Source: an uncultured Bifidobacterium sp.
Lineage (GTDB): Bacteria > Actinomycetota > Actinomycetes > S36-B12 > UBA5976
Reading direction: 5' to 3'
Length of the DNA stretch: 36,729 bases
Assembly: GCA_964469855.1 (NCBI GenBank)
Contig: CAYXYW010000004.1
Location: 1 to 36,729 of the forward strand
Position numbers and translations under genes: made by a program. Of the stretch, positions 28,669 to 35,215 are shown piece by piece. The notes beneath the pieces were generated by a model. That model was not told where the DNA came from and searched no databases. It saw nothing but the letters and a program-made list of their open reading frames with translations. Each line of letters opens with the position of its first letter. The first letter of the stretch is position 1.

Positions 28669-29199
28669 TTAATTCCCCCGATTGATAGCGGAGATCAAAC
28701 CCGTGACTGAACTTTCAACCATTGCCAAAACATCTTGATATGCCGAAATTGGTTCATAATATGGATCTGGCACTTCCAATTTTGAATAATCTTTTATTGG
28801 ATCAAGGTTTTGCAATTGAGCGTCAAATTGACGTAAGAAAAATACTTTTTGGACATCTGTTGGATTATTTGTTAACTGCAAAACATTATCGTAGTTTGAT
28901 TTGTCCATAACCAACAATAAATCGTGATTTTCAAACATAGCACTATTGAATTGTTGTGCTGTATGTTCGTACTTATATCCAACCGCTTCCCAAACTTTTT
29001 TTGATTTTGGGTTTGGCCCTTCGCCAACATGCCAAGATCCGGTACCTGAACTTGATACCAAATACTTTGGTTTCGTTATTTGCTGGGTTCGATTGTGCAA
29101 AACAGCTGCAGCCATTGGCGAGCGACAAATATTTCCCAAGCACACCATCATGACCCTGATCTCAGATTTATCGGCTAATGCGGCGATGTATTCGTTCAC
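28669..29199 (-). CDS. Low-molecular-weight protein-tyrosine phosphatase
   Basis: VCLGNICRSPMA P-loop, GTGSWHVG, VPDPYY; GTG at 29199 with AAGGAG SD. Confidence 0.93.
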   Translation of the reverse strand: MNEYIAALADKSEIRVMMVCLGNICRSPMAAAVLHNRTQQITKPKYLVSSSGTGSWHVGEGPNPKSKKVWEAVGYKYEHTAQQFNSAMFENHDLLLVMDKSNYDNVLQLTNNPTDVQKVFFLRQFDAQLQNLDPIKDYSKLEVPDPYYEPISAYQDVLAMVESSVTGLISAINRGN

Positions 29200-29260
29200 T
29201 ACTGGCTCCTTAATGGCTAAGGTTAGCCTAGTTCTTAAAGAGCGGAGCAGGGTGAATTCA

Positions 29261-29638
29261 ATGACAGCAATTAGAACCACGTTAAAAACTGGCGCAACTG
29301 TTTTTGGATTAAGTGCGGTGCTGCTACTTCTGCTTCCTAGCGTATTTATTGATCTACTTTTATTGCCACAATCTGATGAATTGAGCTGGGCCATGCGAAT
29401 GATCGGAATTACCTTAGTTGCGCTAACTGGAAATATGTACGTTGTAGCCACCACTGCATCTGATCGTGGTGTGCATCGTGCGGCGCAGGTGATGTTGGTT
29501 GCAGCCACCACACTTGGGATTCTTACCTTATTAATTCCGGTTGAGCTAAACCTATTTACAGGCGTCTATGCTGCCATCGGATTTGGATTCGGGCTTACTT
29601 ATGGCACCTTGCTAGTTAAGTTACGGCGCGCCCACTAG
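29261..29638 (+). CDS. Small hypothetical membrane protein (about 125 aa, about 4 TM)
   Basis: Hydrophobic ORF filling the gap between ptpA and typA; start ATG 29261 or GTG 29252 after GGAG. Confidence 0.72.
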   Translation: MTAIRTTLKTGATVFGLSAVLLLLLPSVFIDLLLLPQSDELSWAMRMIGITLVALTGNMYVVATTASDRGVHRAAQVMLVAATTLGILTLLIPVELNLFTGVYAAIGFGFGLTYGTLLVKLRRAH

Positions 29639-32832: not shown

Positions 32833-33243
32833 ATGGAATCTATTGCTCTGGTGCTAGCGGTGTTGTTATCAGCCACTTTGGTTGGTTTTGGTTATCAACG
32901 CAGCCGCGGCCGGATCAAAGCAACAATCAAAGATTCTCAACTGAATGTTGGTGCTCGAATTGGCGAAACTTTGGGTGATCGCGCCACTTTGGTGCAGTTT
33001 TCTAGCGCATTTTGCACGCCTTGCCGCACCACCAGAACCTTGTTAAGCCAGGTGATTACCGACTACCCCGGGATTAAGCACATTGAGATTGATGCTGAAT
33101 CTAATTTGGAGCTAGTCCGAGAATTGAATGTGAAATCGACACCAACCACAGTAATTCTTGATGACAAAGGTTTTGAAATATCCCGTGCTGTTGGCGCACC
33201 CCGTCGATCTGATGTGGTTGCAACACTAAATGCAATTCGCTAA
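32833..33243 (+). CDS. Membrane-anchored thioredoxin (ThiX-like)
   Basis: N-terminal TM, QFSSAFCTPCR CxxC, STPTT cis-Pro loop. Confidence 0.88.
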   Translation: MESIALVLAVLLSATLVGFGYQRSRGRIKATIKDSQLNVGARIGETLGDRATLVQFSSAFCTPCRTTRTLLSQVITDYPGIKHIEIDAESNLELVRELNVKSTPTTVILDDKGFEISRAVGAPRRSDVVATLNAIR

Positions 33244-33296
33244 ATGCAATAATTTCGCAATTAGCCTTATTTGATTTGCTCGTCTATATTCACCCT

Positions 33297-33377
33297 ATGT
33301 TTTCCAATGAGATCAAAATTTTTACTCGTCGCAGGGAGATCATCTACTGCCGGCTAGCCGGAACATTGTGTTGTTAG
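33297..33377 (+). CDS. Leaderless Cys-rich leader peptide, 26 aa (Ms5788A-like attenuator sORF)
   Basis: Not in ORF track; MFSNEIKIFTRRREIIYCRLAGTLCC*; TATATT -10 6 nt before ATG; ends 39 nt before the DUF4395 start. Confidence 0.8.
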   Translation: MFSNEIKIFTRRREIIYCRLAGTLCC

Positions 33378-33411
33378 TTTGAATCCATTTAAACCAACAA
33401 CAAACTAAGGA
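33369..33411 (+). promoter_or_regulatory. Putative attenuator hairpins between the leader peptide Cys codons and the DUF4395 SD
   Basis: 33369-33383 pairs with 33388-33402; alternatively TTAGTTTG (33374-33381) pairs with CAAACTAA (33401-33408), touching SD AAGGA (33407-33411). Confidence 0.6.
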
Positions 33412-33416
33412 AAACA

Positions 33417-33878
33417 ATGTCAAACACAAATTCAATCAATACAGCTTCAAAAACATCTCAAGAAATAGACGCGCGCGGCCCTAGATTCGGCGCGGCAATC
33501 ACCACTTTGGTGCTAGCGACTGTGCTGATAACCCAATCCATTGAACTTCTTGCTCTTCAAACTGCAGTATTTGCAATTGGTGGATTCATCGGACCGCAGC
33601 ATTCGCCTTATGCGTTCATTTATCGAAAAATAGTTAAGCCACGACTGAAGTCGCCATTGGTAACTGAAGATAGTCGACCACCACAGTTTGCCCAGCTGGT
33701 TGGGTTTGGTTTCGCGTTGACTGGCTTCATTGCGCTGGCAACGGGATTTGAAATTATTTTCAACATAGCAATAGCTAGTGCACTTTTTGCTGCTTTCTTA
33801 AATGCAGCATTTGCCTTTTGCTTGGGTTGCGAGATGTATCTTCGAGGGAAGCGACTTATTTCCAAGTTTCGCTCTTAG
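33417..33878 (+). CDS. DUF4395-family membrane protein
   Basis: IDARGPRFGA, EDSRPPQFAQLVG, AAFLNAAFAFCLGCEMY motifs. Confidence 0.92.
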   Translation: MSNTNSINTASKTSQEIDARGPRFGAAITTLVLATVLITQSIELLALQTAVFAIGGFIGPQHSPYAFIYRKIVKPRLKSPLVTEDSRPPQFAQLVGFGFALTGFIALATGFEIIFNIAIASALFAAFLNAAFAFCLGCEMYLRGKRLISKFRS

Positions 33879-33901: not shown

Positions 33902-35215
33902 ATGCGCAAGTTCAGCCTGATTGTCACCATCGCAATATTGCTTGCGGCCTGTGGAAATGATTCGGCAGAACCCAAAACCACTTACGAAGTTCTCGAAGCA
34001 CAAACGTTAGCACTCCCGTGCGGCGAATCAGATCCTGATGTTAAGCGGTATTTGATAACCAAATCACGAACACAACTGGGCGCAATAACAGCAAGCGCAT
34101 GCGGCTATCCAGACAGCGAATATGGTCCAATCACAATTTTAGCTATCTCAAAGAACCAAGAGTCTGGTGTTGAAGTGCTATCCGAAGCAGAAAGTTTCTG
34201 GATTGGTAACGAATCAAGATTCATAGTTACTGATAATGGCTGGGAGTTAGCTGGACTTGTTGGCAATGGTTTTGATGGAGATGAAGCAATATTCAAAACT
34301 GACTTAGTTACTGATCAGTGGCAAGGAAGTATTGAAGTTCTACCAAAACCTCATCCAGTTTCAATAAAGTCGCTAATGAAAACTCCTCTTGACGGCAAAA
34401 ACTTAAGAATAGTTCGACAAGTATCTGCAACAAGCAGCTATAAGCGCTACGCAGTTACCTATAAAAGTGGCGAGCTAACTATTAGCGGCATCATGAATGT
34501 ACCTAATGGTGATGGACCATTCCCAGCACTAGTGCTTGGCCATGGCTATATCGATCCTCGAATTTATACATCAGGTCGTGGCCTGGCTCGCGAGCAAGAC
34601 TATTTAGCCAAGAATGGCTACATTGTTTTACACACCGATTATCGAAATCATGCTGGTAGTGATGATGATCCAGAAAATAACATTAAATTCCGACAAGGGT
34701 ATGTGCTAGATATCGTTAATGCCGCGCTCGCGCTACGCGGATCTGATCTTCCGCAATTGGACGACACTCGAATTGGCTATCTCGGTAGATCCATGGGTGG
34801 TGGCATTGGATATCAAGCAATGGTTGCTTTCCCATATGTATTCAATACATATGTTTTGTATGCGCCAACAAGCGCGGATTATGCCGACAACTTCAATCGC
34901 TGGGGTCGGGTAGCGGCTGACTTCGCACAAGAAGTATCTGACACTTATGGTCTACCTGAAGACAACCCAGAATTTTGGGCTGGGATTTCGGCACTTAACT
35001 ATTTTGATCAGGTTGCTGAGCCAGTTCTAATCCACCACGGCACTTTGGATGACAGCTGCGAGATTGATTGGTCACGAAGAGCTGCTGCAGAACTTAAAGC
35101 CCAAGGTAAAGACGTTGAGTTAATTGAATACGTCGGTGAATACCATGCGTTTTATCGGGACTGGACCCTTTCCATGGAGCGAACCGTGGCTTTCTTGAAA
35201 CGTACGATGAAATAG
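33902..35215 (+). CDS. Lipoprotein with C-terminal alpha/beta hydrolase (S9 peptidase-like) domain
   Basis: ATG at 33902, lipobox LAAC; GHGY, DYRNH, nucleophile GRSMGG, HGTLDD, EYHAF. Confidence 0.85.
   Translation: MRKFSLIVTIAILLAACGNDSAEPKTTYEVLEAQTLALPCGESDPDVKRYLITKSRTQLGAITASACGYPDSEYGPITILAISKNQESGVEVLSEAESFWIGNESRFIVTDNGWELAGLVGNGFDGDEAIFKTDLVTDQWQGSIEVLPKPHPVSIKSLMKTPLDGKNLRIVRQVSATSSYKRYAVTYKSGELTISGIMNVPNGDGPFPALVLGHGYIDPRIYTSGRGLAREQDYLAKNGYIVLHTDYRNHAGSDDDPENNIKFRQGYVLDIVNAALALRGSDLPQLDDTRIGYLGRSMGGGIGYQAMVAFPYVFNTYVLYAPTSADYADNFNRWGRVAADFAQEVSDTYGLPEDNPEFWAGISALNYFDQVAEPVLIHHGTLDDSCEIDWSRRAAAELKAQGKDVELIEYVGEYHAFYRDWTLSMERTVAFLKRTMK

Follow-up and report, generated by a model that had tools for sequence, protein, structure and literature searches.

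The closest described system is Ms5788A of Mycobacterium smegmatis, for which the available text of 10.1101/834739 reports translational attenuation by pairing of the Cys tract with the Shine-Dalgarno (SD) sequence, loss of the response upon frameshifting of the Cys tract, which fits sensing of tRNA-Cys, and the locus order Ms5788A/Ms5788/cysA2. The same text counts as such leaders those short ORFs before an annotated gene that hold at least two Cys codons in a row, and notes that they have conserved non-Cys residues, for which a ribosomal interaction was suggested. DUF4395 is not named in that text, and we infer from synteny that Ms5788 is DUF4395. Cys leaders without terminators were also predicted before cys operons in the available part of PMC1262725, and the part of PMC8079986 that was available lists no such leader. 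Beyond 10.1101/834739, literature searches for cysteine arrest peptides in Actinobacteria and for leaders in Nanopelagicales gave nothing relevant, with most subscription papers lying outside the search.

The window, by which we mean the whole stretch of 36,729 nucleotides that was analysed, belongs to a genome (G000) with a completeness of 74%, whose nearest named relatives are freshwater Actinomycetota, several of them labelled Nanopelagicales. A short leader ORF lies here between a thioredoxin-like gene and DUF4395, which is the synteny of the Ms5788A family, and we consider that it is probably a cysteine-responsive translational attenuator of DUF4395. The layout of the locus is as follows:

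32833..33243, + strand: thioredoxin-like gene with a hydrophobic N-terminus (PF00085, E 1e-10), the upstream synteny marker
33285..33290, + strand: -10 hexamer TATATT, read from the sequence, 6 nt upstream of the ATG (leaderless geometry)
33297..33377, + strand: leader sORF of 26 codons, a divergent Ms5788A-family member (ATG at 33297, TAG ending at 33377)
33407..33411, + strand: Shine-Dalgarno AAGGA of DUF4395, read from the sequence (AGGAAAA invariant in 6 genus members)
33417..33878, + strand: DUF4395 membrane protein gene (PF14340, E 3e-41), the presumed regulated gene
33902..35215, + strand: S9-family alpha/beta hydrolase lipoprotein gene, in the place of the sulfurtransferase found in most relatives

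The -10 and the 26-aa ORF, 6 nt apart, confirm what the original prediction had placed there. The peptide matches a single NCBIfam family, NF042933 (leader_Ms5788A), at 19.2 bits (E 7e-4), under the curated cut-off of 45 bits; it had been called unannotated, which is right only in that it scores under this cut-off, since a model exists. Congeners score 18.7-34.1 bits on the model, which matches 17 of 18 relatives, two of them (the syntenic L076 and L116) exceeding the cut-off, and the poly-Cys leaders over the cut-off lie between thioredoxin and DUF4395 with the sulfurtransferase next. The leader ORF was the sole match of NF042933 in the genome, and hits to the model occur in 213 of the 301 class genomes, counting the unpublished G139 and G146. 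The family NF042934 (cis_reg_atten) shares the motif and matches 14 of the 18 relatives, 8 of them over its cut-off of 27, whereas the window peptide was unmatched at E up to 10. When a profile built from 40 leaders was run on the source genome, no second copy of the family came up, the leader before its cysK gene being missed because it is too divergent, and Rfam at gathering score gave no match over the leader and two chance hits elsewhere.

Like Ms5788A and Rv0815A, the window leader is a leaderless sORF, close to them in length, whose Cys codons sit at the C-terminal end, and it shares with Ms5788A the RR...CR...C motif, the position between thioredoxin and DUF4395, RBS-sequestering pairings (predicted here) and the lack of a terminator. 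It differs from Ms5788A in having three Cys instead of nine, a spacer from leader stop to DUF4395 start of 39 nt instead of 97 nt, no motif Asp, an S9 hydrolase gene next instead of cysA2, its own 5' end instead of the Cys tract as the main predicted anti-SD, and a Nur-type box on its promoter, which occurs in 1 of 29 class-wide HMM-picked loci. Its consecutive Cys25 and Cys26 would place it, by the two-consecutive-Cys criterion, among the poly-Cys sORF attenuators. Because it is a syntenic homologue, yet under the cut-off and without cysA2, we class it as a variant of the Ms5788A kind, and on sequence grounds it is a divergent orthologue of Ms5788A.

A -10 followed by a short ORF with two Cys is frequent by itself (28 of 542 such ORFs in this genome), so the case for the leader rests on conservation and not on the pattern. 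DUF4395 was found in 5 of 7 congeners and the leader in all 5 of those, which is the outcome of the search for the sORF between thioredoxin and DUF4395 in relatives that had been put forward with the original prediction; more widely, the thioredoxin-like gene flanks leader and DUF4395 in most relatives. In two sets of DUF4395 loci that overlap, motif searches recovered leaders at 36 of 50 and at 60 of 80 loci, and 93 leaders with 77 distinct ORFs were kept after 3 were dropped that had no start or no -10; analyses of 76 leaders leave out one ORF with no confident start. The search pattern included the RR, the following D/V/I and the aromatic positions, whose conservation is therefore built in; where the late Cys falls was left free, as the second pattern wanted one Cys in the last 14 residues and the first none. 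TAnnnT lies 6-7 nt upstream of the start in 77/77 leaders, the starts having been picked by a -10 feature within a 5-8 nt range. A metagenome scan gave 5 leader-bearing sequences among 119 hits, one of them clearly a new variant. The sORF at 33297-33377 is, we conclude, real. In freshwater RNA libraries, short contigs with 1-2 differences cover 33313-33447 in 2 of 3 runs of one study; they carry neither strand nor transcript start and the runs contained just 4-5% of words, so that they are a weak hint of expression. A consensus promoter scan returned 0 sigma-70 sites because a canonical -35 is absent, and the leader yielded no terminator call.

Against a near relative, the leader middle differs at 10 of 57 nt, the spacer at 1 of 39 and the DUF4395 start at 5 of 184; since the DUF4395 start is equally conserved, a constraint on the spacer is unsupported. 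An in-frame fusion or readthrough of leader into DUF4395 was considered and rejected: the two are in frame here, but the spacer holds a TAA, and gaps of 41-44 nt break the frame in three congeners. In genus g6 (L008, L013, L017, L022, L337, L338) no leader was found, and thioredoxin runs directly into DUF4395. No leader was found either in L073, L081, L089, L095 and L127, where a Nur-type box lies 52-98 nt before DUF4395; the offset of 52 in three of these suggests that DUF4395 itself became leaderless. The DUF4395 protein carries an invariant FCLGC motif in the alignment and its structure model is a confident helical bundle (pLDDT 91), for which fold searches gave nothing more specific than helical bundles (best Z 9.6; Foldseek without a hit at E<=0.001). 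Elsewhere in the window, a 230-codon ORF without a Pfam hit (28946-29638) overlaps an opposite-strand LMWPc phosphatase ORF (28669-29511), and the true starts of both probably lie further in.

The coding content of the leader is constrained at two places:

33324..33353, + strand: conserved peptide motif T-K/R-R-R-x-V/I-D-x-C/G-R (codon table of 77 leaders; Asp replaced by Ile in the window)
33369..33371, + strand: Cys25 codon UGU at RR+13, the likely sensing codon (Cys in 77/77, UGU in 75/77)

With respect to the core RR-x-x-D-x-C/G-R-x5-C, the window peptide has RR, CR and the Cys at RR+13, and Ile in place of Asp, a residue kept in 74 of 77 leaders. At this position (RR+4; window 33336-33344) G000, G002, G007 and L230 have Ile or Val, and all four have Glu at RR+2, so that the acidic residue has apparently moved from RR+4 to RR+2. 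The Thr, Arg, Arg, Asp and Arg of the motif show synonymous variation over the 77 leaders. RRxxxxxCR had been described as typical of these peptides; RR and CR are indeed present, but the invariant Cys is the one at RR+13, the 'CR' position being Cys in 42/77 and Gly in 33/77. The description of the leader as a minimal three-Cys version has to be given up, as 52/77 relatives have one or two Cys and 18 of the 29 top NF042933 matches have three.

The RR+13 Cys is fixed in position in every one of the 77 leaders, whereas an earlier Cys of the leader is encoded by UGC in 39/42. Consecutive Cys occur in just 20/77 leaders and a single Cys in 8/77. At loci with GC>0.6 the RR+13 codon is UGU in 30/30, whereas their own DUF4395 genes use UGC in 63/64. 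Cys/UGU at RR+13 was also found in 29/29 HMM-picked loci (the top 30 of the NF042933 model minus one from an unpublished genome). UGU is not rare in the source genome (834 vs 987). The predicted partner of the third base of the RR+13 codon is A in 42 of 76 leaders and G in 14; in the other 20 this base is predicted as unpaired or mixed, from which we consider that base pairing and slow wobble decoding may both contribute to the constraint. Within the genus, Cys18 and Cys25-UGU are kept in 6/6 members and in one further metagenomic variant.

Folding of the leader RNA gave the following elements:

33298..33305, + strand: anti-SD arm at the leader's 5' end, predicted to form an 8-bp helix with 33409-33416 (free-fold P 0.97)
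33363..33369, + strand: anti-AUG arm (Thr-Leu-Cys codons), predicted 7-bp helix with 33414-33420, forming when the 5' end is ribosome-covered
33369..33402, + strand: 15-position hairpin over Cys-Cys-stop (14 pairs, one G-U, one A-C mismatch; -11.2 kcal/mol)
33374-33381/33401-33408, + strand: alternative 8-bp stem (-4.6 kcal/mol), which excludes the 15-position hairpin

Two stems had been proposed originally as mutually exclusive pairings. The longer one was recovered, burying Cys25-Cys26-stop (spacer-shuffle p 0.004), and the 8-bp stem exists and excludes it, although it overlaps the SD, which it was said to reach, in the first 2 nt alone. As an on/off pair the two do not hold: both stems use the same 5' arm over Cys-Cys-stop, so that a ribosome at the Cys codons removes both, and the 15-position hairpin stops 4 nt short of the SD and leaves it free. 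The original prediction had also missed the two predicted RBS-blocking helices listed above, 33298-33305/33409-33416 and 33363-33369/33414-33420, as well as a palindrome at 33244-33260. In the free fold the 5' end lies on the SD, and the model pairs the Cys tract of the window with the SD region only once that 5' end is occupied. Covering nt 1-18 lets 33363-33369 pair with the AUG region of DUF4395, alongside either the 15-position hairpin (0.54) or the 8-bp stem (0.41).

The RBS opening energy in the window, an equilibrium prediction with an assumed ribosome footprint as are all those given here, is 7.2 kcal/mol for the free RNA. It drops to 3.6 when the 5' end is covered, stands at 7.4 when one ribosome occupies Cys25, and reaches 1.1 when a queue has formed behind that ribosome. 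Because a single ribosome at Cys25 leaves the RBS closed in 6/6 genus members (5.7-7.4 kcal/mol) and covering the 5' end alone opens most of it in 4/6, cysteine dependence would rest on queueing. A clear second layer formed by the Cys tail was seen in just the window and G004 among the 6 genus members, the anti-AUG helix being strong in the window and weak in 3 of 5 congeners, and the pairing of the Cys tract with the SD region weak in 4 of 5. A helix equivalent to the 5' anti-SD is predicted in 6/6 genus leaders (shuffle p 0.001-0.036, non-independent), and its fixed register is 92% paired versus 40-71% in slid controls. Both arms of this helix have changed in two congeners, where the pairing with the genome's own RBS is the better one and its register is shifted; fixed-register covariation in the genus gave no compensatory pair among 7 distinct variant types. 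Of 76 leaders in the free fold, 41 pair the RBS with the Cys tail, 17 with the 5' end and 18 with other regions; when the 5' end is covered, the Cys tail is the partner in 48. Averaged over these leaders, RBS opening costs about 7.5 kcal/mol at first and 4.8-5.8 kcal/mol once the ribosome has arrived at Cys+0 to +2, and just 33/76 gain at least 2 kcal/mol at the Cys. Among the genus members, it is chiefly the 5' end of the leader itself that is predicted to act as anti-SD.

The gene order after the 76 leaders is DUF4395 and a two-domain rhodanese (sulfurtransferase) in 55; 10 of the remaining loci lead to a Nur-type gene, 6 (this genus) to the S9 hydrolase lipoprotein and 5 to other genes. A DUF4395-sulfurtransferase operon, which the original prediction had named for mycobacteria, was not found: no sulfurtransferase follows here, the S9 hydrolase follows DUF4395 in 6/6 genus loci, and a CysA2-type sulfurtransferase query gave 0/8 genus genomes (66-94% completeness). 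A rhodanese domain near DUF4395 in congeners was considered as a candidate and belongs to a UPF0176-type protein, not CysA2. In G004 the hydrolase gene after DUF4395 (L205:2528-2848) has just 107 codons versus about 437 in congeners. CysK is encoded in the source genome, and a -10 with a leaderless Cys-tailed sORF precedes cysK in 8/8 genus genomes; two of these 8 leaders belong to the Ms5788A family and have the Cys at RR+13, and six are without the motif but with terminal Cys codons. The cysK leaders are the best independent support for cysteine as the signal. Like Rv2334A and the actinobacterial cys-operon leaders in the available text of 10.1101/834739 and PMC1262725, they are Cys-tailed short ORFs before cysK without a terminator; compared with what those texts describe, two in this genus are of the Ms5788A family and all have a weak upstream Nur-like site. 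The cysK leader of the source genome (G000:C9:23539-23601; L171:1365-1427) has 20 aa and a single terminal Cys-UGU, and its counterparts across the 8 genus genomes are Cys-tailed and otherwise very different peptides.

Upstream of the -10 lies a candidate operator:

33244..33260, no strand assigned: candidate operator for a nickel repressor, a palindrome of the Nur type (6-5-6) that spans about -53 to -37 relative to the leader start

It matches the Streptomyces coelicolor consensus tTGCaa-N5-ttGCAA, as given in the available part of PMC2691836, at 10 of 12 positions. Its core is kept in 6/6 genus loci, the exact box lies within 120 nt of 50/76 leaders at clade-specific offsets, and a flanked box pattern was found in 49/61 family genomes versus 3 control hits. 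Because the exact core is not raised genome-wide (8 copies versus 5-13 with other spacers), enrichment rests on position and conservation. Just 3 intergenic sites with <=2 mismatches occur in the source genome, namely at the leader, before a CbiM/NikM-type gene and before a YceI gene. A matrix trained on 15 sites from nickel/cobalt-transporter loci (one probably incidental) places the leader box 2nd in the genome; it also scores weaker sites (9.5-16.6) at 67-69 nt upstream of 8/8 cysK leaders. Nur is encoded at C26:2321-2734 (best PDB match 3EYY, E 5e-38) and keeps the Ni site H70/H72/H126, all three histidines of the S. coelicolor protein, and the DNA-contact residues Y56/R57; Ni-SOD is encoded as well. 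The leader promoter is thus predicted, from these sequences, to be repressed by nickel-bound Nur. As in the available parts of PMC2691836 and PMC3919588 on S. coelicolor, the box is a 6-5-6 palindrome found before nikM-type transporters; the targets named there are sodF, sodF2, nikABCDE and nikMNOQ, whereas here it also lies before DUF4395, cysK, DoxX and YceI genes. A literature search for Nur linked with cysK or cysA gave nothing relevant, most subscription papers being outside it.

The nur gene of many relatives is found downstream of DUF4395, no more than 3.3 kb away, for which reason the box may have begun as autoregulation of nur. In the source genome the box has been retained while nur sits on another contig (G000:C26:1028-3753; L209) beside glnR and a THAP4-like heme-binding gene, with thioredoxin-leader-DUF4395 elsewhere, and the nur/DUF4395 cluster seems to be broken in this genus. 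At loci without a leader the box sits upstream of thioredoxin, and in two genomes of genus g6 a strong Nur box lies between the thioredoxin-DUF4395 pair and a divergent cysK. Further copies in the family precede CbiM/NikM-type, NiCoT and DoxX genes. The two other sites of the source genome lie 59 nt before the CbiM/NikM-type ECF transporter gene (G000:C14:3949-3965) and 143 nt before the YceI gene (G000:C66:2741-2757). Boxes before DoxX genes were seen in L179, L181, L182, L184 and L185, and in L180 a box lies between an O-acetylhomoserine sulfhydrylase and a RuBisCO-like gene, which suggests a possible wider nickel/thiol regulon in that family. A TAA-ATG mini-ORF within the palindrome was discarded, as it is not conserved (2 codons here, 6 in others).

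The family match, the synteny, the invariant Cys codon and the parallel cysK leader support the Ms5788A-like cysteine-sensing attenuator of DUF4395 that was predicted originally, and we regard it as likely that this Ms5788A-family leader attenuates DUF4395 according to cysteine from a promoter predicted to be Nur-repressed. From the observed ORF, -10 geometry, family match, synteny, Cys-UGU codon, complementary arms and box, we infer the following course. The mRNA would start at the leader AUG. With plentiful cysteine, ribosomes would clear the leader and the free 5' end would pair with the DUF4395 SD, turning translation off; with a ribosome on the 5' end, the Thr-Leu-Cys-Cys-stop codons would pair with the SD and AUG instead, so that DUF4395 would stay off. 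When Cys-tRNA is short, a ribosome would wait at Cys25/26 and cover the Cys tail, and ribosomes queued about 10 codons apart would cover the 5' arm, so that both blockers would be gone and DUF4395 could be translated. Nickel-bound Nur at 33244-33260 would lower transcription, and full expression would then need both low nickel and low cysteine.

Other readings of the same observations could be considered. The fixed RR-to-Cys spacing (77/77), together with the synonymous variation at Thr, Arg, Arg, Asp and Arg, the single Cys of 8/77 leaders and the CC of just 20/77, would be compatible with a sequence-specific arrest peptide, in which RRxxDxxR in the exit tunnel stalls the ribosome at the Cys 13 codons later and senses a small ligand (sulfide, persulfide, free thiol or metal) and not uncharged tRNA-Cys; the ribosomal interaction suggested for conserved non-Cys residues in the available text of 10.1101/834739 points the same way. 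We nevertheless consider this unlikely, since RR, D and R belonged to the search pattern, the motif codons also make a recurrent RNA hairpin, Asp is lost in the window and two congeners, 6/8 cysK leaders have no motif and keep terminal Cys, and the Ms5788A frameshift in that text, which abolished the response, fits sensing of tRNA-Cys. Another reading, quite unlikely in our judgement, holds that the leader has decayed in this genus to a cysteine-insensitive coupling device, where any ribosome on the leaderless AUG melts the 5'-end:SD helix. Covering nt 1-18 does bring RBS opening to 1.1-3.9 kcal/mol in 5/6 genus members, the sulfurtransferase was not found in the 8 genus genomes, and the leader middle diverges fast (10/57 nt from the near relative); but Cys18 and Cys25-UGU are kept in all 6 members and the metagenomic variant, opening energy in the window and G004 drops sharply only once a ribosome covers the Cys tail, and parallel Cys leaders precede cysK.

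A role of the peptide in trans, such as that of a small Cys-bearing partner of DUF4395 or thioredoxin that binds metals or thiols, with the RNA pairings incidental, would agree with conservation at the peptide level and with possible co-control by a metal regulator. It is very improbable given the UGU codon constraint, the fixed first position in the operon and the complementarity to the RBS, and reporter mutants of Ms5788A act in cis according to the available text of 10.1101/834739. Hardly credible is a transcription attenuator with the 15-bp hairpin as terminator: a stable hairpin does come directly after the sensing codons, but the sequence behind it (AACUAAGG) has no U-tract, nothing like a terminator was called within the leader, and Ms5788A is shown in that text to be translational.

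Translational attenuation of DUF4395 by cysteine is already known in kind as a basic element, to which this locus would add, as predictions, a single invariant UGU codon, a 5'-end anti-SD and a Nur box. We can also hypothesise, as a possible but doubtful extension, that the thiol genes (DUF4395, cysK) of freshwater Nanopelagicales are under a two-input switch, made of a Nur operator and an RRxxDxxR-sharpened stalling at one wobble-read Cys-UGU, with the queue stripping the 5' end off the SD in this genus, and that the class-wide Ms5788A family is a single-codon, peptide-assisted cysteine sensor of which the mycobacterial poly-Cys tail is a derived amplification. If the cysteine-responsive reading is true, cysteine attenuation, which we found tested only in M. 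smegmatis, would reach genome-streamlined freshwater Actinomycetota, and a question left by 10.1101/834739, namely the smallest sufficient number of Cys codons and the role of the conserved non-Cys residues, would become testable, with the invariant UGU codon at RR+13 as an exact target. Through the Nur box, moreover, cysteine synthase and DUF4395, whose function is unknown, would be linked with the nickel status of Ni-SOD-encoding cells, a tie which suggests that DUF4395 works in thiol/redox defence.
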